Shown: one piece after another, positions 1 to 17,753 of the stretch
Position numbering within the stretch: the stretch's first letter is position 1
Layout of the letters: the number at the start of each line of letters is the position of its first letter
Virus record (IMG/VR): IMGVR_UViG_3300035678_000011
DNA length: 17,753 bases
Source of the DNA: a virus
Direction: 5' to 3' (one strand)
The notes under the pieces: generated by a model
What the model was told of the DNA's origin: nothing
Database searches by the model: none
The model's input: only the letters and a program-made list of their open reading frames with translations
Position numbers and translations under genes: made by a program

Positions 1-127
1 GCCGCCGCAGCCCGCGATCATGGTCACGCCCAGCACGTACGGGCCGCCGCCGACCGGGGGCCGATGATGGCCGAGCCGATGGACTTCACCGTGGTCGGCC
101 CGGACGGCGACGGCGACACCTGGTTTG
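1..127. repeat. Exact 127-bp terminal direct repeat, left copy (identical to 17627..17753)
   Basis: Compared base by base: gccgccgcagcccgcgatcatgg...gacacctggtttg is present at both window ends. It carries the 3' end of CDS 17235..17693 (stop TGA 65-67) and the first 64 nt of CDS 64..423. This implies a circular or terminally redundant unit of 17,626 bp. Confidence 0.97.
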
Positions 128-8566: not shown

Positions 8567-8585
8567 CGATACTCCTCAACTCGGG

Positions 8586-8613
8586 TGCACCGGCGCCCAT
8601 AGACGCCGGTGCA
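8586..8613 (-). terminator. Hairpin downstream of capsid ORF (terminator/attenuator or mRNA stabiliser)
   Basis: tgcaccggcg (8586-8595), loop cccataga, cgccggtgca (8604-8613): a perfect 10-bp stem. It lies in the 121-nt gap after the stop at 8688. No U-tract. Confidence 0.5.
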
Positions 8614-8687
8614 TATTCGCTGCTCAACCACACACACAAGATCGGATGGCGCCGCCGAATCCCACACCGCGGGATGGCGCCGGCGGT

Positions 8688-11600
8688 TTACACCGGGTCG
8701 TAGACCAGCTCGCGGGTACCGGCGAAGTCGGTCACGCCGAACGCCTTGTAACCCCAGATGCCCATGTCCACCCAGGCCACCCGCCAGGTGATGTCGATGC
8801 GCTGCGGAGCGGACGCCCAGCCGCACACCTTCTCCGGGTCGAACATGTAGCTGCTGGCCGCGTTGATCGAGGTGGCCGCGGTGGCCCACGCGGGGATCCA
8901 GAGCTTGCCGTGCGCGTCGAGCGAGTCGTAGCGGGGGTCGGCGGTGCCGACGGCGTTCTGTGCCCCGATCGACGGGTACAGCCGGCGGCCGTTGGAGTCC
9001 TTGGCCTTGACCATGGCCGAGTACAGGTCGATCTGGGTGTACACGTTGCGGAACCGGTCACCGCCGCGGATGAACTTCAGCGGGATCAGCCCGGTCGCGA
9101 TCGCCTGATCCAGGGCCGAGTCGACCGCCGCGGTGGTGATCGTGATGTCGGTCATCGACGCGGCCACCGCGACCAGCTGGGCCACCGCGAACGCTTCCAG
9201 GGCCTCGAAGTAGCCGCGGGTCATCTGCCGGTAGATCAGCCCACTCATCTGCGGGTTGCCGCCCTGGTCGAACGCCTCCCGGGTGATCTCCACCTTGCCC
9301 GACACGGGCGACGGGGTGATGGTCTGCGCGGTCGCGGTGAACGTGCCCGGGGTCGGCTCGGTGCCGGTGACGTGGTCGGCGACCAGGCCGGAGCTCGAGT
9401 TGAACTTGGGGATGACGAACGGGGTAACCGCGTCGAGGGTGCCCTTGTTGATCGCGTCCCAGATCGGGTACTGGAATTCCATCTGGTCGACGTACATGTC
9501 CGGCCGGTTCTGCGGGTAGTTGAGGTTCACGACGTTGGCCGGGGTGATCGCGAACTGCTGCGGGTCCGGGTCGGCGTACTGGTCGCGCAGGAACCCTTCG
9601 GCCCGGTCGCGGGAGCCCTGGTCGCCGCCGCCGCCCTCACGCCACCCGGCGAGCAGGTCGGCGCTGAAATCGTGGGTGCCCCGGCGCAGGTTGCCGGTCC
9701 GGTCGAACCGGTACGGGGAAGGCTCGCGGACCTGCGCTGGCCCGTGGTGCGGGTTGACGACCAACGGCGGCTGCGGGGCGCCGTTGGCGTCCAGCGGGAT
9801 GGGCGTCACGCCAGCCTGCTGCGCGGCGACCCACGCCTGGAATTGCTCGAACGTGGCGCCCGCGCCGGGGTTCGGCACGGCCGGCGGCACCGCGGCCGGC
9901 GGGGCGGTCTGGCGCAACTGCGCGATGAACGTCTGGCACGCGATGTTGGCTGCGTGCTTGTGGCCGCAATGCTGGCATGGGTCCACGGTGGTGCCTCCTG
10001 TCAGGTCCGCGGCCACCTTGGTCACGCGGGCGTTGTCGAACGCGGGCAGATGGGTCGAGCTGGTCTCACGCCACGTCGCCCGGACCACGTCGTAGACCTG
10101 GTCGTCTTCGTTGAAAACGACGTCGCCGTCTTCGGGGTACATGCTGAAATCGACGCCGACCGACAGCCCGGTGTACATGCCGTGCGCTGCGTCGTAGAGC
10201 AGCCCGTCGCGCTGGGCTTTCTGCGGGGAGCCTTCCGGGCCGTCCAGGATCGACAGCTCGACGGTCGGGCCAGCCGCCGAATCGGTGATCGACTTGTGCA
10301 TACCGACCGGGTCACCGTGGTTCTTGAGCACCGGCATCCGGTCCGGCGACGAGTACTCCAGGCTGCCCGGCTTGAACCGGTATTTGATGCCGAACTTCGT
10401 CGCGACCTGGTTGTAGGGCACGGCCAGGCCGGTGATCGTGCGGGCGCCCTCGTCGACGGTCGGCGCGGCCACCGGCGCACCGTCGAACTCCGACCAGTCG
10501 AAGGTCATCGTTTGGGGCGCGTCGAAGGTGACCCGCGGCCGGGCCTTGCTCTGCTGGCCGGCCGCCGCTTCCTTGGCCTCGCCCGCGGCGGCGCGGGTGA
10601 CCACGTCGGCGGGAATGCCGGCCTGCTCACCGATCCACTGTTCGTCCACCACACCCATGTCCTGTAACGCCTTCCAGTAGGTGGTCTGGGCGACCGGGTC
10701 GGGTTTGAGGTAGTCGGACAGGTCGAACCGGGGTGCGTAGCCGCGCCGGGTCACATCGCCCATCGCCAGGCGATCGGTGAGCGCGGACATGTACGGCGCG
10801 TACATCCGGTTGATCTTGTCCCGGCGGCGCGCGTCCTCGTTCTGATAGGTGCGCGACGTGGTGGACACCCCCAGGTCCTCCGGGTCGACGCCGAGCCCGT
10901 TCGCGATCGCGATCGTCACCTGCGACTGCAGCTCGGACAGGGTCAAGTCTTTCGGCGACGGCGACGTCACGTCGGAGCGCTGCACCGTCGACGGGATCCA
11001 GCCGAACGGCCGGTACTGGCGCATCGCCCCGTACTCGGCTAGGAACAGGTCCACCTCGTCGTCGTCGAGCGGGTCAACGTCGGAGGCCGGATTGTCGGTG
11101 AAGAACTCGCGCAGCGCCGGGTTCTCGGCGTACATCTCGGTCAGCCGGTCCAGTTTGATCGCGATCCGGATGGCCCGCGCGTTGGCTGCCAGGATGCCCG
11201 GGTTCGGGCTGTCGAAGCGGATCATCAACGCCGACGGGAACGGCTGCCAACCCTTGCCGTCGCAGTGGTCGATCCACACGTACCGCTTGTCCTCGGCGGC
11301 CACGCCGGTGCGGTCCAGCGGCGGGATGCCGGGCAGGTTCGTGTTCGGCGACCGGCCGGGCTTGGTCAGCGACACCTTCCGCGGGTCGATGCGCCGCACG
11401 CTGGCCGGGTAGTTGTCGAAATCTTGGCCGGTGACCTGCCACCAGGCGATGTGCTCGAACGCCAAGTCTTCGATCGTCATGGCCATGTGCACCACGTTCG
11501 GCACGTCCGGGTCGAACTGCCGAAATAGGGCCGAGTCGACCACCGCAGGCCCGCGGTACAGACGCAGCGGCAGCGTGGAGATCGAGCAGATTTCGTTGCG

Positions 11601-11801
11601 GCCGCGTTGCACCGCCGCCACCGAGAGGGCCGCCTCGCGGGAGACGACGGTCATCTCCCCGTTCTTCATCGCGGCCAGCACCATGTCGACTGGGCGCGGG
11701 GCGGTGTCGAAGGTGTGCGTCGGCTCGAGGTCGAGGGTGATCATCCGTGGCGGGGTGACGAGATCCCGCATGACCTGCACTGCTGTGCGCACCCATCCCA
11801 T
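8688..11801 (-). CDS. Portal - S78 prohead protease - HK97-fold major capsid protein fusion ORF (1037 aa)
   Basis: N-terminal ~400 aa are portal-like (..RGRNEICSISTLPLRLYR.., ..TSRTYQNEDARRRDKINRMYAPY..). Residues ~430-610 are HK97-type protease (ITGLAVPYNQ.., VLKNHGDPVG, YTGLSVGVDF, ETSSTHLPAFDNA). The C-terminal ~300 aa are HK97-family MCP (..PIWDAINKGTLDAVTPFVIPKF.., ..VEITREAFDQGGNPQ.., ..WGYKAFGVTD..). I saw no stop or frame break in 3,114 nt. Confidence 0.85.
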   Translation of the reverse strand: MGWVRTAVQVMRDLVTPPRMITLDLEPTHTFDTAPRPVDMVLAAMKNGEMTVVSREAALSVAAVQRGRNEICSISTLPLRLYRGPAVVDSALFRQFDPDVPNVVHMAMTIEDLAFEHIAWWQVTGQDFDNYPASVRRIDPRKVSLTKPGRSPNTNLPGIPPLDRTGVAAEDKRYVWIDHCDGKGWQPFPSALMIRFDSPNPGILAANARAIRIAIKLDRLTEMYAENPALREFFTDNPASDVDPLDDDEVDLFLAEYGAMRQYRPFGWIPSTVQRSDVTSPSPKDLTLSELQSQVTIAIANGLGVDPEDLGVSTTSRTYQNEDARRRDKINRMYAPYMSALTDRLAMGDVTRRGYAPRFDLSDYLKPDPVAQTTYWKALQDMGVVDEQWIGEQAGIPADVVTRAAAGEAKEAAAGQQSKARPRVTFDAPQTMTFDWSEFDGAPVAAPTVDEGARTITGLAVPYNQVATKFGIKYRFKPGSLEYSSPDRMPVLKNHGDPVGMHKSITDSAAGPTVELSILDGPEGSPQKAQRDGLLYDAAHGMYTGLSVGVDFSMYPEDGDVVFNEDDQVYDVVRATWRETSSTHLPAFDNARVTKVAADLTGGTTVDPCQHCGHKHAANIACQTFIAQLRQTAPPAAVPPAVPNPGAGATFEQFQAWVAAQQAGVTPIPLDANGAPQPPLVVNPHHGPAQVREPSPYRFDRTGNLRRGTHDFSADLLAGWREGGGGDQGSRDRAEGFLRDQYADPDPQQFAITPANVVNLNYPQNRPDMYVDQMEFQYPIWDAINKGTLDAVTPFVIPKFNSSSGLVADHVTGTEPTPGTFTATAQTITPSPVSGKVEITREAFDQGGNPQMSGLIYRQMTRGYFEALEAFAVAQLVAVAASMTDITITTAAVDSALDQAIATGLIPLKFIRGGDRFRNVYTQIDLYSAMVKAKDSNGRRLYPSIGAQNAVGTADPRYDSLDAHGKLWIPAWATAATSINAASSYMFDPEKVCGWASAPQRIDITWRVAWVDMGIWGYKAFGVTDFAGTRELVYDPV
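9984..9999 (-). promoter_or_regulatory. Internal ribosome-binding site plus in-frame GTG inside the fusion ORF
   Basis: The minus strand reads ACAGGAGGCACCACCGTGGAC: AGGAGG (9999..9994), a 7-nt spacer, then GTG (9986..9984). The GTG is in frame with the stop at 8688 (1,299 nt). It falls just after the protease domain. Confidence 0.35.
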
Positions 11802-13413: not shown

Positions 13414-13678
13414 CCCCGCTCCCGGTCACCGCGGGCCGCGCCGACGGCGACATGCCCAACCGGTCAAGCATCGCCTCGAGGCGCGCGCCCACGCGCGCAA
13501 TCTCCAGGATCTTGCGCGCGTGTTCCGCCCCGTCCTCGGCTGCCTCACCGTTCAACAGATCGTCGAAACAGTCGTCTAGGGCGTCGGCGTACCGCTTGGC
13601 GAGCGCGATCGTCGCCCGGTCGCGGGGGAGCACCGGTGTGGTCTCCAGCGACTGCCGGAGATCACCGCCGATGGTCAC
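13277..13678 (-). CDS. terS: Terminase small subunit (about 133 aa)
   Basis: Lies immediately upstream of terL. Sequence: ..IALAKRYADALDDCFDDLL..ARVGARLEAMLDRLGMSPSARPAV, an L-G-x-S/T-P-S-x-R motif typical of P27-type small terminases. I take GTG 13678 as the start because it overlaps the upstream TGA (GTGA). Track start 13717 would overlap the methyltransferase gene. Confidence 0.65.
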   Translation of the reverse strand: MTIGGDLRQSLETTPVLPRDRATIALAKRYADALDDCFDDLLNGEAAEDGAEHARKILEIARVGARLEAMLDRLGMSPSARPAVTGSGGETVVDPATAELERLRADAAAGAPTTGLDYAAAVDPAVTAADTED

Positions 13679-14400
13679 CCGTCGCGCCCAGCTCGAGGTG
13701 ACACATACGCGCGCCACGCCTGCCCGACGATGCCGGAACCGGGGTACAGGTCGTCCAGGGTGTCGCCAGCCGTCGCGCCGACCAGGTCGAAGATCCAGCG
13801 ACAGAACGCGGCCGGCTTCGCACCGATCACCCGCGACGGCAGCGTGATCATGGCGGACACGCCGTGCTGCAAGACGTCGACGCGTCGCGCCGCGCCGGCA
13901 CCGCGGCGGAACGCGACGGGTACGTAGATCACCGGCTCCCAGGCGTTGACCGCGTTCCTAGCCGTCGCGTGCGGCCGGGCGCCACGGATCCACGCCGCGA
14001 CGCGTACCGGCAGGCCTTGCGCGACAGCTAGCGCCAGCACGGCCGGCAACGCCCGCGCGGACGTCGACAGCGCCCATCCGTCGTAGGTGGCCAGCCGCGA
14101 CAGCAGCGCGGCGTGATCCACCTCGCCCGCGTAGTCCGGGTGCCCGCGGTACAGATGCGCGTTCCCGGGGTACGGCGGGTCGGCGTACGCCAGCCGTCGC
14201 GTGGATCCAGGCGACGCGTCGTGCGCCGCGGCCGCGGGCCCACGCGACGCGTAGCGGGTGACGCGATGCCGGGCCTGTCGGCACGACTGCGAGCAGGTCA
14301 AGGCGTCGCGTCGCGCCCGGGCGGGGATCGGACCGGAGCACCAGCGGCATTGGCGTTCCGTCGCGGGCGCCGGCGGGAGCGACGGGTCGGCGACGGTCAC
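13675..14400 (-). CDS. DNA methyltransferase (beta-class N6-A/N4-C type) with N-terminal zinc-ribbon
   Basis: Motif IV is YADPPYPG. Motif I-like DDLYPGSGIVGQA lies near the C-terminus (order IV...I). The N-terminus CRWCSGPI..ALTCSQSCRQARHR is a 4-Cys ribbon. Confidence 0.8.
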   Translation of the reverse strand: MTVADPSLPPAPATERQCRWCSGPIPARARRDALTCSQSCRQARHRVTRYASRGPAAAAHDASPGSTRRLAYADPPYPGNAHLYRGHPDYAGEVDHAALLSRLATYDGWALSTSARALPAVLALAVAQGLPVRVAAWIRGARPHATARNAVNAWEPVIYVPVAFRRGAGAARRVDVLQHGVSAMITLPSRVIGAKPAAFCRWIFDLVGATAGDTLDDLYPGSGIVGQAWRAYVSPRAGRDG

Positions 14401-14672
14401 CCGCGGCCGGCCGAATTTCGGGGCACCGGGTCCGCGGCGGCCGGCTGTTGCTCGAGCTGGGATCGATCAGAGTCGATCGCTACAGGTCGTGACGGGTCCG
14501 TGAAAATCGGCGTGGATCGGTCCGGGGGGAGAGAAAAACAGGGCGCGGGTGTCCGCCCACCTCCTGTGCCGGGAAAAAACGCGGCCTGCGCGCGGGCCAA
14601 CGCCTCGAGCCCGCCCGTCGCGATGTGCTGATGCGCGACGCCAGGTCCGGGACAGTTCGGGCAGTCGTTCAC
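14397..14672 (-). CDS. Doubtful ORF (91 codons); only the 5' third looks coding (VNDCPNCPGPGVAHQH..)
   Basis: GTGA overlaps at both ends. From about 14590 down to 14400, third-position G/C drops and homopolymer runs appear, so the 3' two-thirds may be non-coding. Confidence 0.3.
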   Translation of the reverse strand: MNDCPNCPGPGVAHQHIATGGLEALARAQAAFFPGTGGGRTPAPCFSLPPDRSTPIFTDPSRPVAIDSDRSQLEQQPAAADPVPRNSAGRG

Positions 14673-14866: not shown

Positions 14867-15033
14867 CGTTTGAACGGCTTCAGCGAGTAGCAGAGCAGGG
14901 CGCGGCAGCGGGTGCGCTTGCACCGCGTCTCCCAGTGGCCGAGCGCGTTGGGTGTGGACGCACCCCAGGAGTGGAAGCCCTGCCGGCAGAGCCAGGGCCT
15001 GCGCTCGGTCGGCTCACCGTCGAGCTTAATCAT
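14863..15033 (-). CDS. Small Cys-rich basic protein (56 aa)
   Basis: ATG 15033 is preceded by AAGGTGGTGA. Sequence: MIKLDGEPTERRPWLCRQGFHSWGASTPNALGHWETRCKRTRCRALLCYSLKPFKR. Third positions are G/C-rich. This is the 3' part of track ORF 14863..15306. Confidence 0.6.
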   Translation of the reverse strand: MIKLDGEPTERRPWLCRQGFHSWGASTPNALGHWETRCKRTRCRALLCYSLKPFKR

Positions 15034-15035
15034 GC

Positions 15036-15317
15036 TCACCACCTTGTCACGGGCACGGCCGGCGGATCGGCCGTGCCGCTCGGGTCGCCCAGATGCAGGT
15101 TGCACGGGGCGCACGCTGCCTGTAGATGGTCGGGCTGGTCGGTCTTGCAGCCGTGGCACCCGGTCTTGCCGTGCATGTGGTGCACGTGCATCGGGTCGGA
15201 TTGCCCGACGCACGTGCCCTCGATCTTGAGCTGACAGGCGTGGCCATCGCGCTGCAGCACGAGAGCGCGGCGCCGCCGCCACGCTCTCGTGCTGCCTGCT
15301 GCCCACCCTGCGCTCAT
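15036..15317 (-). CDS. HNH endonuclease (93 aa)
   Basis: Sequence: ..RRRALVLQRDGHACQLKIEGTCVG..MHVHHMHGKTGCHGC..DHLQAACAPCNLHLG. This is an HNH/zinc-finger core. It lies upstream of the terminase genes, as in HNH-dependent cos packaging modules. Confidence 0.85.
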   Translation of the reverse strand: MSAGWAAGSTRAWRRRRALVLQRDGHACQLKIEGTCVGQSDPMHVHHMHGKTGCHGCKTDQPDHLQAACAPCNLHLGDPSGTADPPAVPVTRW

Positions 15318-15418
15318 GTACTCAGTGTGGGCAGTCCGGGCCGCCGGATGCCGTGCCGCTCGAGCCAGGCCACGGCGGCGCGGATCCCTGGCTCGGTGCC
15401 GTCGCTGATCAGCTTCAT
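15314..15418 (-). CDS. Tentative mini-protein (34 aa)
   Basis: ATG 15418 and stop 15314-15316 both sit in ATGA overlaps with neighbouring genes. Sequence: MKLISDGTEPGIRAAVAWLERHGIRRPGLPTLST. Third positions are G/C-rich. Confidence 0.45.
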   Translation of the reverse strand: MKLISDGTEPGIRAAVAWLERHGIRRPGLPTLST

Positions 15419-15762
15419 GAGCGGTGCGCCCCGTCGTGACCGCGCTCCCGGCTGCACCTGGTCGTCACCAGCTTGCCGCTGCGCGAGAACGGCATCCCGC
15501 ACGGCGCCATCATCGGCGAGGCGCGCAGCGCGCTCGAGTTCAGCACCTCGGTCCGGGCCGCCTCCGCCTCAGGCGTGCTGTCCAGGATCGGCAGCTCATG
15601 CGCGCTCTGATTCCAGGCCACCTGCGCGCCCTGCTGCACGGCGTTGGTCATGTCCAGCTCAGCCAGGGCGCCAGCCAGCGCACGAGCCAAGATCCAGTTG
15701 TGGTCGATTACCGCGCGTTTGGTCCGCTCTGCGAGCAGCATGTACAGGGTTGAATCGGGCAT
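15415..15762 (-). CDS. Hypothetical protein (115 aa), first gene of the late coupled operon
   Basis: ATG 15762 is preceded by GAGAGGTGA 5-6 nt upstream. Sequence: MPDSTLYMLLAERTKRAVIDHNWILARALAGALAELDMTNAVQQGAQVAWNQ... Third positions are nearly all G/C. The upstream 153 codons of track ORF 15415..16221 lack that bias. Confidence 0.65.
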   Translation of the reverse strand: MPDSTLYMLLAERTKRAVIDHNWILARALAGALAELDMTNAVQQGAQVAWNQSAHELPILDSTPEAEAARTEVLNSSALRASPMMAPCGMPFSRSGKLVTTRCSRERGHDGAHRS

Positions 15763-16376
15763 TTGATCACCTCTCGATGGGAGCGGTTGGTGGATGGTGC
15801 ACCCCACCCCTGCAAGACCAATTTCCGCACGCAGCGGTGGTCCGGCAGGGGTGGTGAGAGCTCTCGACGGTCGGGCAGTCCGGACGTACGCAGAGCCCAC
15901 GCACGTCGCATTACTGACGAGCCAGGGCGGGGTATGTCGGCGGCTCTCACCGCGCCGGCCGCACCCTGGCCGTGGCTTGGTCGCAAATCGCGGCCAGGGT
16001 GCGGAGCCTTCCGGCGCGGACCGCTCTGCGCGGTGCACGTTGGGCCTGACGTGTTCCGCTGCACCCCTCGCGAGGTGCGCAACACGTGCTCGGCCGCCGA
16101 CTCCAATACGCGTGATTCGTGCATTCACAGGGACGCGCGGCAAAGGGACGTTGTGCGTTCGCTTCCCAGCGATCACGCGGTTGATAAGCCTGCTCCGCGT
16201 TTCGCGCCCAACGGATTGCAAGTCCGTTTTTCGCCATATGAGGATGATCTACGGCGATGCGGGCGGCAGACAGTTTGTCCGGTAGCCTGACACCTGGATT
16301 TGTTTTGGCGCTGTCATCGTGAACGCTCGGCCCCGGGTTTGCAAGGCCCCGGCCGAGCGTTTCGCGTTTTACGCTC
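15763..16376. other. 614-nt non-coding, hairpin-rich region (candidate ori / packaging site / ncRNA locus)
   Basis: No frame on either strand shows the G/C third-position bias seen in every other gene, and all track ORFs here are Arg-rich. It contains a 12-bp-stem hairpin (15961-15972/15991-16002), palindromes gagagctctc (15856-15865) and gtccggac, and repeated motifs (see findings). Confidence 0.6.
16322..16361. terminator. Strong hairpin directly downstream of the Cys-rich gene; U-tract only on the plus strand
   Basis: aacgctcggcc (16322-16332) pairs with ggccgagcgtt (16351-16361), an 11-bp stem, with a further 3 bp possible. On the plus strand it is followed by tcgcgtttta. On the minus strand it lies 16 nt after the stop at 16377. 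Confidence 0.55.
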
Positions 16377-16559
16377 TCAGCGAACATGTGCGTTGTGCGA
16401 CCGGCAGTACCGGGTCGCGGTGCAGTGCTCGCAGATGGTGGCGACCAGCCACACCCGCGGTCGGGTGCAGCCGGCGGCCGGGTCGTGCCGGTTGCTGCAG
16501 TCGCCGCACACCGGCCAGCCGAGCGAGCGTTGGTCGCGCTTGCCGAACTGTCTAGGCAC
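16377..16559 (-). CDS. Small Cys-rich protein (60 aa) with CxxC...CxxCx5C spacing (WhiB-like flavour, truncated)
   Basis: Sequence: VPRQFGKRDQRSLGWPVCGDCSNRHDPAAGCTRPRVWLVATICEHCTATRYCRSHNAHVR. GTG 16559 overlaps the HTH gene end by 8 nt. Third positions are strongly G/C. Confidence 0.6.
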   Translation of the reverse strand: MPRQFGKRDQRSLGWPVCGDCSNRHDPAAGCTRPRVWLVATICEHCTATRYCRSHNAHVR

Positions 16560-16761
16560 GGCCGGCCACCACCGCGCGTGCCTCCCGTAGCCGGATCACC
16601 TCGGCGCGCCAGAACACGCGGATGTTGCCGATCTTGTAGTCGCCGAGCGAGCCGCGGGCCACCATGTCGTAGAGCGTGGCCCGGGACACCCCGAGCATCG
16701 CCGCGGTCTGTTTCGCGTCGCACCATGCGTCCGGGTTGGGTAGATCAAGTGTTGCTTGCAT
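16552..16761 (-). CDS. Helix-turn-helix DNA-binding protein, MerR/excisionase (HTH_17)-like, 69 aa
   Basis: Start ATG 16761 (MQATLDLPNPDAWCDAKQTAAMLGVSRATLYDMVARGSLGDYKIGNIRVFWRAEVIRLRE..) is the classic Xis/AlpA-type winged HTH pattern. The upstream 74 codons of track ORF 16552..16983 overlap the divergent gene and are discarded. Confidence 0.8.
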   Translation of the reverse strand: MQATLDLPNPDAWCDAKQTAAMLGVSRATLYDMVARGSLGDYKIGNIRVFWRAEVIRLREARAVVAGRA

Positions 16762-17238: not shown

Positions 17239-17693
17239 GCGGTGAGCACCGGGCGCCCGGACAGCTGTTCCGGGCGCCGGGCGGCCGGGCGGGCCAGCCG
17301 GACGGGCGGCACACCGCGGAATACGTCGCTCGCAACGGCGTCGGCATCGTCGGCATGTACCCCGCGGGGGCGGCCGGCCGGGTGTCGCTCGCCGAGCACC
17401 TCGCCGACCCGAACCCGGACCGCGGCGGCCGATTCGATCCCCTCCCAGGAAGGCAGGACATGACCCATCATCGTCCCGAATATGTGCCGGTCGAGGCGCA
17501 TTACGTCAACCCGCCCGGGGCGCCGCCGCGCGCCCGCCGGGCTGTGATCACCACCGCGGCGCTGCTGGTCGCGATCGCCGCGGCCGCGGTCACGTTCACG
17601 CTGTGCACGGGCTGGCTGGCCAGCCAGCCGCCGCAGCCCGCGATCATGGTCACGCCCAGCACGTACGGGCCGCCGCCGACCGGGGGCCGATGA
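17235..17693 (+). CDS. Membrane-anchored hypothetical protein (152 aa; alternative start ATG 17460 giving 77 aa)
   Basis: GTG 17235-17237 overlaps the upstream TGA (GTGA), and the frame keeps G/C-rich third positions from there. The alternative ATG 17460 has a GGAAGG SD 6 nt upstream. One TM helix (AVITTAALLVAIAAAAVTFTLCTGWLA). The stop overlaps the next ATG (ATGA at 17690-17693). Confidence 0.6.
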   Translation: MSGEHRAPGQLFRAPGGRAGQPDGRHTAEYVARNGVGIVGMYPAGAAGRVSLAEHLADPNPDRGGRFDPLPGRQDMTHHRPEYVPVEAHYVNPPGAPPRARRAVITTAALLVAIAAAAVTFTLCTGWLASQPPQPAIMVTPSTYGPPPTGGR

Positions 17694-17753
17694 TGGCCGA
17701 GCCGATGGACTTCACCGTGGTCGGCCCGGACGGCGACGGCGACACCTGGTTTG
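17627..17753. repeat. Exact 127-bp terminal direct repeat, right copy (identical to 1..127)
   Basis: See left copy. Bases 17690..17753 are a truncated duplicate of the start of CDS 64..423. Confidence 0.97.

Follow-up and report, generated by a model that had tools for sequence, protein, structure and literature searches.

What function does a 614-base non-coding island serve in the genome of a small tailed phage? We analysed a 17,753-nt stretch of DNA (the window), a circular assembly of a 17,626-bp tailed phage whose TerL, HNH and capsid-protease genes are of actinophage type. The island (15763..16376, minus strand) lies between the stop codon of an ORF for a Cys-rich 60-aa protein and the ATG of the gene that heads the late operon. 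The original prediction had described it as a structure-rich segment of lower GC content and proposed an origin, a packaging/cos region, a late promoter with leader, or a structured non-coding RNA (ncRNA). The GC content of the island was indeed lower (0.650, compared with 0.695 genome-wide), and every hairpin, palindrome and repeat named there was found in its place, including a perfect 12-bp stem (15961-15972/15991-16002), the palindromes GAGAGCTCTC (15856-15865) and GTCCGGACGTACG (15878-15890) and a direct repeat of AGGGACG (16129-16135 and 16144-16150). A stem of that length occurred in only 2 of 500 shuffles of the island. The complementary pair GGTGAGAGC/GCTCTCACC (15853-15861/15943-15951) was present in the sequence but was not conserved among relatives, because its downstream partner falls in a variable stretch. 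The description of the genome as otherwise nearly gapless did not hold: intergenic gaps of 112-285 nt were also found at 767-1051 (285 nt), 14401-14668 (268 nt), 8567-8687 (121 nt) and 14924-15035 (112 nt).

Full-length copies of the island were conserved in 42 non-redundant phage contigs, and conservation was stronger than in the genes on either side. Four relatives (L003, L010, L015 and L008) matched the full-length island at 62-78% DNA identity, and the flanking genes of L010 and L015 had no DNA-level match although the island did. The GC3 bias of the real genes (0.87-0.95 in those flanking the island) was absent from every codon phase of the island. Across the 42 homologues, the mean codon-phase GC difference was 0.064, all six frames were interrupted by stops in 32, and 95 of 111 indels were not multiples of three. 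A conserved open frame, a phase bias and indels in threes, as expected of a protein-coding gene, were lacking in these homologues, and the island remained non-coding, as had been proposed. ARAGORN found 0 tRNA or tmRNA genes in the window.

We then assessed the structure of the island by comparative analysis. The RNAalifold structure comprised 129 pairs within a body of about 540 nt on the minus strand (15770..16309), from the predicted transcription start to a conserved tail. The results showed that 87.9% of cells were paired, compared with 72.8% in shuffles and 37-44% in slid controls. Double-compensatory cells numbered 750, compared with 244 in shuffles, and none of 500 shuffles reached 750. 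The covariation score was 0.381, against 0.132 for shuffled and about 0.07 for slid partners, and 82 of the 129 pairs carried double changes. The strand was chosen by counting G-U pairs and A-C mismatches in covarying helices. In helices other than H1, G-U outnumbered A-C on the minus strand (248 vs 85), a ratio of about 3:1 despite a U-poor strand. This G-U excess, a GNRA loop and the promoter described below point to transcription of the island as a minus-strand RNA. The comparison of RNAalifold energies did not discriminate between the strands, and the per-sequence MFE was lower on the opposite strand, which we attributed to composition. The covariation above controls, the GNRA loop and the strand-specific G-U pairs bear out the proposal of a structured ncRNA.

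The 5' domain (16110-16309) was only partly resolved, into H5 and H7. It is followed by the 5' arm of the long-range helix H10 together with the invariant TGGAGTCGG (16090..16105, minus strand), whose 3' arm lies at 15936-15948. H10 was 97.4% paired, with compensatory changes in 7 of 10 pairs (for example GC:31/AU:11 and UG:20/CG:16). A core three-way region (16020..16089, minus strand) contains H11 (16084-16089/16035-16040, 97.6% paired), H12 (16076-16083/16051-16060), H13 (16070-16074/16061-16065) and H15 (16030-16034/16020-16024, 99% paired, all 5 pairs covarying), as well as the invariant motifs ACG...GGCCCA and GCAGAG. The loop of H13 was GCGA, GUGA or GAGA, a GNRA tetraloop, in 40 of 40 homologues. 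The small hairpin predicted at 16034-16051 was present in the sequence, but it competes with H11 and H12, which are better supported by covariation.

Downstream of the core on the minus strand, H16 (16011-16019/15950-15958, block 15950..16019) showed compensatory changes in 9 of 9 pairs and encloses H17-18 (15994-16004/15959-15969), the 12-bp hairpin of the original prediction; the conserved CCGGAAGGCTCC lies at 16003-16014. H17 carried compensatory changes in 7 of 8 pairs, and the length of H17-18 varied among homologues, the hairpin being nearly absent from plasmid-type copies. The most conserved block, GAGAGCCGCCGACATACCCCGCCC (15925-15948), contains CCCGCCC, which was invariant in 42 of 42 sequences, and is followed by the hairpin H19-20 with loop GUAAUGC (15913-15929/15898-15909, block 15898..15948). 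Pairing in H20 reached 96.6%; 7 of its 9 pairs covaried, and it showed G-U at 50 vs A-C at 2. The 3' hairpin H22 (15800..15859) has 21 pairs, 12 with compensatory changes, which include CCCCACCCC/GGGGUGGGG vs CCCCGCCCC/GGGGCGGGG, and it holds the invariant G-run CAGGGGTGGGG (15799-15812). H22 is not a canonical terminator, since no U-tract follows it. The conserved tail CTCCCATCGAGAGG (15770..15783) leads into the next gene through its Shine-Dalgarno sequence to the ATG (15760-15762); it was kept in most phage copies at 6 to 72 nt from the start codon, took a variant form, CTCCCTCCGGCAG, in L072, L085 and the Prauserella plasmid, and was absent in L008. As separate observations, long-range CGG/CCG (16279-16281/15868-15870) and GGAG/CUCC pairs are candidates without covariation support; their bases are invariant and therefore uninformative for covariation. 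A simple stack search was too noisy in variable helices for extending the model or finding pseudoknots.

Upstream of the RNA body, we located a putative sigma-A-type promoter (16316..16344, minus strand) with the -35 box TTGCAA (16339-16344), a 17-nt spacer and the -10 box CACGAT (16316-16321), and transcription is predicted to start near 16309. Among 42 sequences, alignment columns T34, T35, G36 and A58 were nearly invariant and T62 was invariant. A -35/-10 pair occupied this alignment position in 36 of 42, compared with 13 of 42 for the next-best site on either strand, and many homologues read TTGACA-16/17-TAACCT. No antisense promoter was conserved, the best antisense site (13/42) being away from the 5' region. 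The window's own TTGCAA-17-CACGAT fell below the threshold of an E. coli-type scan, and its -10 box is weak. The -35 box lies in the loop of hairpin H1 (16322..16361, given here without a strand), in which 7 of 8 stem pairs showed compensatory changes; an A-rich tract (16362-16376) adjoins H1 on its 5' side in the minus-strand sense. Mismatches in H1 were A-C 27 vs G-U 5 in that sense. Read on the plus strand, these mismatches become G-U, and TTTCGCGTTTT comes after the stem. The A-tract is a U-tract in that sense, and H1 looks more like a plus-strand terminator; on the minus strand no U-tract is present, and a terminator pattern scan called H1 on neither strand. The A-tract and H1 hairpin were also retained in the Micromonospora and Prauserella copies.

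The gene order around the RNA was nearly universal among the phages: HTH17, Cys-rich ORF, RNA, 1-3 small ORFs, HNH, TerS and TerL. The genes on either side of the RNA in the window lie on the minus strand. An HTH_17 (excisionase-like) protein (16552-16761; Pfam HTH_17 1.8e-8, PHROG 66) and the Cys-rich 60-aa protein (16377-16559, GC3 0.87) are encoded upstream, and these two genes were always linked upstream of the RNA in phages. The first downstream gene, geneA (15415..15762, 115 aa, assigned from the GC3 frame plot), is followed by a 34-aa ORF and then an HNH endonuclease gene (15036-15317; PHROG 144, 2.3e-7). Related IMG/VR loci searched with geneA as the probe yielded no relatives; a motif, WA..AL..GRY.LA..LA.LA, was common to about 20 of 33 first downstream ORFs. 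The RNA lay promoter-proximally in a long operon both in the window and at about 40 of the 42 phage loci, and no canonical terminator followed it in the window and about 95% of relatives. The promoter is conserved and the predicted RNA would run directly into the first gene of the packaging/structural operon, in agreement with the proposed late promoter and leader. Two relatives from two samples (L008 and L119) had the whole early block inverted. The order HTH, Cys-rich ORF, RNA was still maintained in the inverted L008, and in both genomes an unrelated 60-aa ORF alone followed the RNA before convergence on the lysin gene.

At least 10 independent relative contigs started at CTGTYYCTCTCTCCCC, which corresponds to about position 14541 of the window, about 1.2 kb from the island and just upstream of methylase-like and TerS genes. 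The putative genome end (cos) therefore maps near 14541, outside the island. Hairpins with T-runs at 14541-14599, between the RNA and the terminase genes, may be cos features rather than terminators.

The RNA core also recurred outside phages, on a Prauserella plasmid, a relaxase-bearing contig and a Micromonospora contig. A core covariance model, R1, matched plasmid-type copies at E 2e-10, 8e-6 and 2e-7; it reached the Prauserella copy, which an nhmmer profile built from phage copies failed to reach. H10 in the Prauserella copy showed compensating changes on both arms. Its carrier is plasmid pPcorDSM45821a of Prauserella coralliicola DSM 45821, a culture-collection strain. At two plasmid-type loci, a DUF2637-like gene and a TrwC relaxase gene lay downstream of the RNA in the same orientation. 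The RNA and the next gene of the Prauserella plasmid are separated by GGACCGG repeats and a further promoter-like site. In Micromonospora, the RNA and parA are convergent, and the contig shows no convincing gene downstream of the RNA. The predicted RNA family spans dozens of tiny soil phage genomes and extends to actinobacterial conjugative plasmids. Searches with blastn using the island and the consensus core against cultured phages and PLSDB stayed at chance level except for the Prauserella plasmid. When 185,579 bacterial genomes were scanned strictly for two motifs there were 0 matches, and a single-motif scan of bacterial genomes gave one, in Micromonospora. No RNA was found near Amycolatopsis and Kibdelosporangium chromosomal homologues of the plasmid's 406-aa protein, and Gordonia phage Emperor had an analogous low-coding stretch without a homologous RNA.

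On balance, we judge it somewhat probable that the island is a self-contained minus-strand RNA module, in which a promoter drives an ornate RNA, about 540 nt long, that forms the late operon's 5' leader. A host-type (sigma-A) promoter, inside and just after H1, would drive the ncRNA, which would fold into the long-range H10, the three-way core, the GNRA-capped hairpin and the G-rich 3' hairpin. Because no canonical terminator follows the RNA, it would also be the 5' leader of an operon that may run from geneA through HNH and across cos to the terminase, structural and lysis genes; we infer both transcription from about 16309 and co-transcription with the late genes. More tentatively, we suggest as one possibility that the RNA, once folded, engages some conserved machinery of the host (most plausibly the RNA polymerase making it) and sets the reach or efficiency of transcription into the downstream operon. 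Such an effect would resemble processive antitermination by put or conAn2, or leader attenuation. The stand-alone copies suggest that the fold can also act without a downstream operon. Its candidate roles are those of a leader that acts in transcription elongation or regulation, of an RNA working in trans and of a ColE1-like primer. Several points argue against the leader model. A strictly cis-acting antiterminator would be useless or harmful in the L008/L119 arrangement; the Micromonospora copy converges on parA, and the Prauserella copy has a separate promoter-like site before the next gene. About 55 invariant nt over 540 nt are far above the needs of known antitermination RNAs. The lower antisense MFE, the terminator look of H1 on the plus strand and the weak -10 box also count against it.

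A second explanation, to which we give a smaller though appreciable probability, is a stand-alone trans-acting ncRNA, forming a particle to bind or sequester a factor of the host early after DNA entry, for host take-over, establishment or anti-defence, its leader position being incidental in most genomes. It would fit the phage leaders, the inverted L008 and L119, the Micromonospora parA locus and plasmids with a separate downstream promoter alike, and a conserved promoter belongs to the RNA itself. The plasmid copies adjoin oriT-like repeats, upstream of the relaxase operon. In phages, the genome end away from the terminase genes, which in lambda is packaged last and ejected first, lies 1.2-1.8 kb from the RNA. 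Made from the first DNA to enter a new cell, such an RNA might disarm a host defence. The ornate fold, the many invariant unpaired bases and the GNRA loop resemble the phage-borne GOLLD and ROOL (PMC12286853). Against this explanation, the 3' end has no terminator, the conserved tail runs into the ribosome-binding site of the next gene in most phages, and the phage-linked Cys-rich protein is absent from the plasmids.

The proposed origin leads to a third explanation, which we consider unlikely: a primer and origin similar to ColE1 RNA II, serving phages and small conjugative plasmids as a protein-free replication device, in which the G-rich 3' part would hybridize persistently to the template and be processed by host enzymes so as to prime DNA synthesis. 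The scans covered the 14.9-kb plasmid and 10 window ORFs, which surround the island or belong to the early block, and no replication protein was recognised in either set. The length of about 540 nt and the promoter-first layout are like those of RNA II, an invariant G-run (GGGGUGGGG) lies near the 3' end, and the orientation relative to other genes can flip (L008). The Micromonospora copy lies beside parA, and the Prauserella copy adjoins an AT-rich palindrome and repeats. However, no RNA I-like antisense promoter is conserved, the G-run is paired within a covarying hairpin, and the island RNA departs from RNA II in the dense invariant nucleotides at its junctions and in its GNRA loop. No ColE1-type origin is known from Actinomycetota. 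Several early ORFs without an assigned function could also be initiators. A protein-dependent origin would have iterons or DnaA boxes, an AT-rich unwinding element and an adjacent initiator gene. The phage island had no iterons (the only repeat was one 7-nt pair) and no AT-rich stretch (GC 0.61-0.68 throughout), and no initiator was recognised among the scanned ORFs. Cumulative skew was uninformative in this nearly unidirectional genome. The statement that the whole genome lacks a recognisable replication gene comes from the original prediction.

A structured ssDNA element of the sso, ssi or Frpo type, to which host RNA polymerase or primase would be recruited once one DNA strand had folded in the course of rolling-circle replication or conjugative transfer, seems to us very unlikely. 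Strand-specific structure with wobble pairs would look identical in ssDNA, GNNA-type loops are also stable in DNA, and the plasmid copies adjoin relaxase/oriT-like regions, where ssDNA arises. Against it, 36 of 42 phage copies keep a -35/-10 promoter of the double-stranded type immediately upstream on that strand, the DNA injected by cos-packaging tailed phages is double-stranded, and 540 nt with long-range helices and a three-way core exceed the size and complexity of known sso and ssi elements. Finally, a packaging signal (cos/pac), a degenerate protein gene or chance structure is highly improbable: the island does lie upstream of HNH and terminase genes and high-GC sequence yields many ORFs and hairpins, but the contig termini place packaging at about 14541, which overturns the proposed cos role, stop codons, indel lengths and codon phase exclude coding, and covariation far beyond both controls, with a 12-bp stem matched in 2 of 500 shuffles, argues against chance.

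Structured bacterial and phage RNAs longer than 500 nt are rare, and the known classes (RNase P, tmRNA, group I/II introns, OLE, GOLLD, ROOL and HEARO/omega RNA) each opened new biology. The RNA is previously undescribed and has no Rfam 15 match. An Rfam 15 scan of the window at E<=1 returned two sub-threshold matches, both outside the island, and a scan of 13 homologous loci at E<=5 gave nothing above 25 bits on the element. Membership of GOLLD, ROOL, OLE, HEARO, group I/II introns, RNase P or tmRNA was rejected for lack of a match, as were 6S, EAR and riboswitches. No description of this RNA was found in the accessible literature, and the motifs given in the text of an IMG/VR structured-RNA survey were 151 nt or shorter. 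Comparative support for the RNA, from at least 42 diverse sequences, is unusually strong, and its presence on both tiny tailed phages and relaxase-bearing plasmids implies a general function for mobile elements of Actinomycetota. It is also directly testable, with one carrier in a culture-collection strain, and it bears on how tailed phages of 16-19 kb without recognisable replication or late-regulation proteins control and copy their genomes. If true, a protein-free replication device would explain how phages of about 17 kb manage without a recognisable replication gene.

GOLLD, ROOL and OLE are large ornate ncRNAs of bacteria and phages (Rfam; PMC12286853). The island RNA is like them in falling in the 500-800 nt class and in its many covarying helices, invariant junction bases and carriage on mobile elements. 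Unlike them, it matches no Rfam model in the window or in 13 homologues, occurs in a different host phylum, and lies away from tRNA genes, directly upstream of an operon and behind a conserved promoter. ColE1 RNA II is a structured transcript of about 550 nt with a constitutive promoter. The likeness lies in a G-rich segment near the 3' end and a replicon without a recognised initiator protein; the island RNA differs in having no conserved antisense promoter, a G-run locked in a hairpin, much more conserved unpaired nucleotides and an unrelated host phylum.

In the late region of lambda, the constitutive PR' is followed by the 194-nt 6S leader RNA and tR', and late transcription proceeds across cos. 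Here too, the predicted late promoter and leader lie near the right end of a linear genome, and the terminase and head genes can be reached only by transcription across the joined cos. The lambda leader, however, is short, unstructured save for its terminator, and Q-dependent, whereas the leader proposed here is a covarying fold of 540 nt, and the scanned window ORFs included no recognisable Q-like protein.

The put RNA of phage HK022 is an RNA element heading a long operon on a mobile element. Further precedents for large leader RNAs on mobile elements come from pLS20, with the conAn2 antitermination RNA, which works with the ConAn1 protein (PMC8191782), and a 456-nt leader attenuator (PMC13401043). 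Like these, the island RNA is structured, promoter-proximal and placed at the head of a very long phage or conjugative-plasmid operon, with a small conserved protein gene next in many genomes and T-run hairpins further down the operon. It shares no sequence or model homology with the conAn2/put group, whose hosts are Firmicutes or enterics and not Actinomycetota, and it is much larger and more conserved than put. As would not be expected of a strictly cis-acting element, the island RNA persists as a stand-alone copy in L008, L119 and Micromonospora.

The exact 127-nt terminal direct repeat of the window (1-127 and 17627-17753) indicates a circular assembly with a k-mer overlap and a genome of 17,626 bp, so that plus-strand ORFs at the two window ends are contiguous. 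The genome has a GC content of 69.5%, and almost all of its genes lie on the minus strand. Around the island their order is an HTH_17 protein (16552-16761), a Cys-rich 60-aa ORF (16377-16559), the island itself (15763-16376, minus sense), geneA (15415-15762), a 34-aa ORF, an HNH endonuclease (15036-15317) and an 84-aa ORF, followed past a 268-nt gap by a 241-aa protein, TerS, TerL, and the structural and lysis genes; a short plus-strand block diverges from them at about 16807. TerL is about 33% identical to the large terminases of Gordonia, Arthrobacter and Microbacterium phages, and 34 nt of one long ORF are identical to part of the capsid-protease fusion gene of the 16.6-kb Gordonia phage Emperor. 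The 1037-aa ORF at 8688-11801 (minus) spans the match to this capsid and maturation-protease fusion, and may have further head functions fused. The 241-aa gene (13675-14400, minus), the first past cos, encodes an N-terminal CxxC...C...C motif and the sequence LAYADPPYPGN, which resembles the DPPY motif found in N6-adenine DNA methyltransferases; the protein had no Pfam match, and in three relatives (L015, L092 and L104) its gene lies immediately upstream of the RNA instead.

We then examined the conservation of the island. A Logan assembly contained the same phage, and there too gene calling placed nothing in this stretch. Among 26 loci of TerL relatives in IMG/VR, blastn showed that four kept the whole 614 nt at 62-78% identity, and in two of these the flanking genes had no DNA-level match. 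Scanning viral and metagenome contigs for motifs and then with nhmmer brought the number of non-redundant full-length copies to 42, mostly from soil; their contigs are all about 16-20 kb long or are fragments. In their alignment, invariant blocks, including TGGAGTCG, ACG...GGCCCA, GCAGA, CCCGCCC, GTA and GGGG, alternate with helices that vary in sequence and length. The island is not coding: the GC3 bias of the real genes was absent from every codon phase, stop codons occurred in all six frames in 32 of the 42 copies, and the open frames of the other ten differed between copies. The mean codon-phase GC difference was 0.064 across the 42 copies, and 95 of 111 indels between close pairs were not multiples of three. 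The original prediction was right about the island, and all its hairpins, palindromes and repeats were found exactly in place, including a perfect 12-bp stem that only 2 of 500 island shuffles contained; its description of an otherwise nearly gapless genome was too strong, as four further gaps of 112-285 nt exist.

A structured non-coding RNA, one of the roles originally proposed, was borne out by covariation. RNAalifold predicted 61 pairs from 21 sequences and 129 pairs from all 42. In the 42-sequence alignment 87.9% of cells were paired, compared with 72.8% in column shuffles and 37-44% when the partner was slid by 1-3 columns; 750 cells had changed on both sides with pairing kept (shuffles 244, with 0 of 500 reaching 750; slid 140-215), and the covariation score was 0.381 (shuffles 0.132; slid about 0.07). 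The long-range helix H10 (TGGAGTCGG.../...GCCGAC), whose arms lie about 150 nt apart in the window, was 97% paired with 7 of 10 pairs covarying, and H11, H15 and H20 were 97-99% paired. H16, H17 (the 12-bp hairpin) and the 3' hairpin H22 were also among the best helices, and H13, on a covarying stem, ended in a GNRA tetraloop in 40 of 40 copies (GCGA 32, GUGA 6, GAGA 2). The fold of the 5' third was only partly resolved. Alifold energies were similar on both strands and did not discriminate between them, and single-sequence MFE was lower on the plus strand in 41 of 42 copies, which we attribute to the higher G and U content of that strand. In the covarying helices other than H1, 248 G-U pairs stood against 85 A-C mismatches on a minus strand with only 14.6% U, and several pairs alternated between G-C and G-U with zero A-C, indicating that the fold belongs to the minus strand, in the same sense as the flanking genes.

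The first hairpin, H1 (16322-16361), holds TTGACA or TTGCAA in its loop, with an xAxxxT hexamer 16-17 bases after it. The hexamers are TTGCAA and CACGAT in the window, below the threshold of an E. coli-type scan, and TTGACA and TAACCT in many relatives; TTG and A were nearly invariant and the final T invariant. In a positional scan this -35/-10 pair fell at the same alignment column in 36 of 42 copies, compared with 13 for the next-best site on either strand, and transcription is predicted to start near 16309. We infer that the RNA is transcribed; since H22 lacks a canonical terminator behind it, the transcript would form the 5' leader of the late operon in this genome. The late promoter and leader proposed originally are supported. 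H1 has an A-rich tract at its 5' side and 27 A-C mismatches against 5 G-U, and so reads on the plus strand as a stem followed by a U-rich tail. At 16322-16376 the hairpin looks like a product of selection on the plus strand, although the minus-strand promoter occupies its loop and 3' flank; alternatively, the conserved A-tract may serve as an UP-like element. Plasmid-type copies keep the A-tract and hairpin, and the -35 box is missing from the loop there.

The 268-nt gap (14401-14668) is likewise non-coding and contains two minus-strand hairpins, each followed by T-runs, and relatives retain its core immediately upstream of TerS. The starts of at least ten independent contigs coincide at CTGTYYCTCTCTCCCC, equivalent to window position ~14541, and mark what is very probably the cos site and the physical end of the genome. 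The packaging or cos role suggested for the island is thereby excluded. A hairpin and T-run in the gap straddle the genome end. In the linear genome, 1.2-1.8 kb separate the island from the right end, and transcripts started at its promoter can include the terminase genes only by running through the joined cos.

Nearly all loci share the gene order HTH17, Cys-rich ORF (or 241-aa gene), RNA, 1-3 small ORFs, HNH, TerS and TerL; the first downstream ORF is heterogeneous, with a common N-terminal motif in about 20 of 33. The exception is a lineage from two samples (L008 and L119), in which the entire early block is flipped with respect to the late operon (L008 2600-10500, compared with window 16807-766 and 15763-16761). 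Here HNH, cos and TerS lie downstream of the plus-type early genes, and the HTH gene, Cys-rich ORF and RNA read the opposite way into an unrelated 60-aa ORF, converging on the lysin gene. This RNA keeps the invariant bases and promoter and lacks the CTCCCATCGAG tail and H13. A covariance model built on the 106-nt RNA core found no core in Emperor or in the more distant TerL relatives L012, L014, L021 and L025 over the sequence upstream of TerL, about 4.5-10 kb. In Emperor a low-coding stretch (15635-16287) occupies a comparable position between an excisionase-like regulator and HNH, without a homologue of the RNA.

The RNA also occurs outside phages. Among 185,579 bacterial genomes, a motif scan picked out one match, a shorter, divergent copy (nhmmer E 8e-33) on a 23.8-kb Micromonospora contig, within a ~1.4-kb non-coding stretch between M48 peptidase and ParA genes; a TraG-like coupling-protein gene lies near the RNA, and no phage proteins were found on the contig. 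Blastn with this copy identified the 14,853-bp circular plasmid pPcorDSM45821a of Prauserella coralliicola, where the RNA fills an 860-nt unannotated gap. Its 3' neighbors are genes for a 406-aa protein (weak ribbon-helix-helix match, DUF2637-like family) and a TrwC/MobF relaxase-helicase, and the plasmid also encodes a TrwB-like coupling protein. The core model matched the Micromonospora contig (64 bits, E 2e-10), the Prauserella plasmid (41 bits, E 8e-6) and a Logan contig (45 bits, E 2e-7), where the RNA again precedes, in the same orientation, genes for a 411-aa homologue of the 406-aa protein and a TrwC relaxase. Both H10 arms of the Prauserella copy have changed in a compensating way. 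The stretch that separates the RNA from the next gene on this plasmid (~12290-12520) holds an AT-rich palindrome GGCTGTATAACTGATTATACAGCC, TTGACG-17-AATAAT and eight or more GGACCGG repeats, candidates for a promoter together with an oriT, iterons or operators.

These results show that the fold is conserved, strand-specific and ornate, with a conserved promoter, on phages and plasmids. About 95% of the phages and two plasmid-type loci have it in the leader position, which suggests that the RNA acts on transcription into the downstream operon, a cis-acting role that we propose tentatively; the T-run hairpins before the terminase genes were counted toward this role as well. An argument for the module also working alone comes from the inverted lineage, the setting in Micromonospora and the separate promoter-like site in the Prauserella plasmid, and favors a trans-acting RNA or a role in replication or establishment after entry. 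A trans-acting RNA appears somewhat less probable than a cis-acting role, and a replication role, as a ColE1 RNA II-like primer or the origin suggested originally, less probable again. A single-stranded DNA element is very improbable. The RNA is testable in a culturable strain.

No tRNA or tmRNA was found in the window, no Rfam 15 family matched the island there (E<=1) or in 13 homologous loci (E<=5), and our literature search found no description of the RNA. On comparative evidence, the element is a well-supported new family of large structured RNA without an Rfam counterpart; the motifs reported in an IMG/VR structured-RNA survey are no longer than 151 nt. For the cis-acting role in transcription, precedents for a leader RNA exist in conAn2 (PMC8191782) and the pLS20 leader (PMC13401043).
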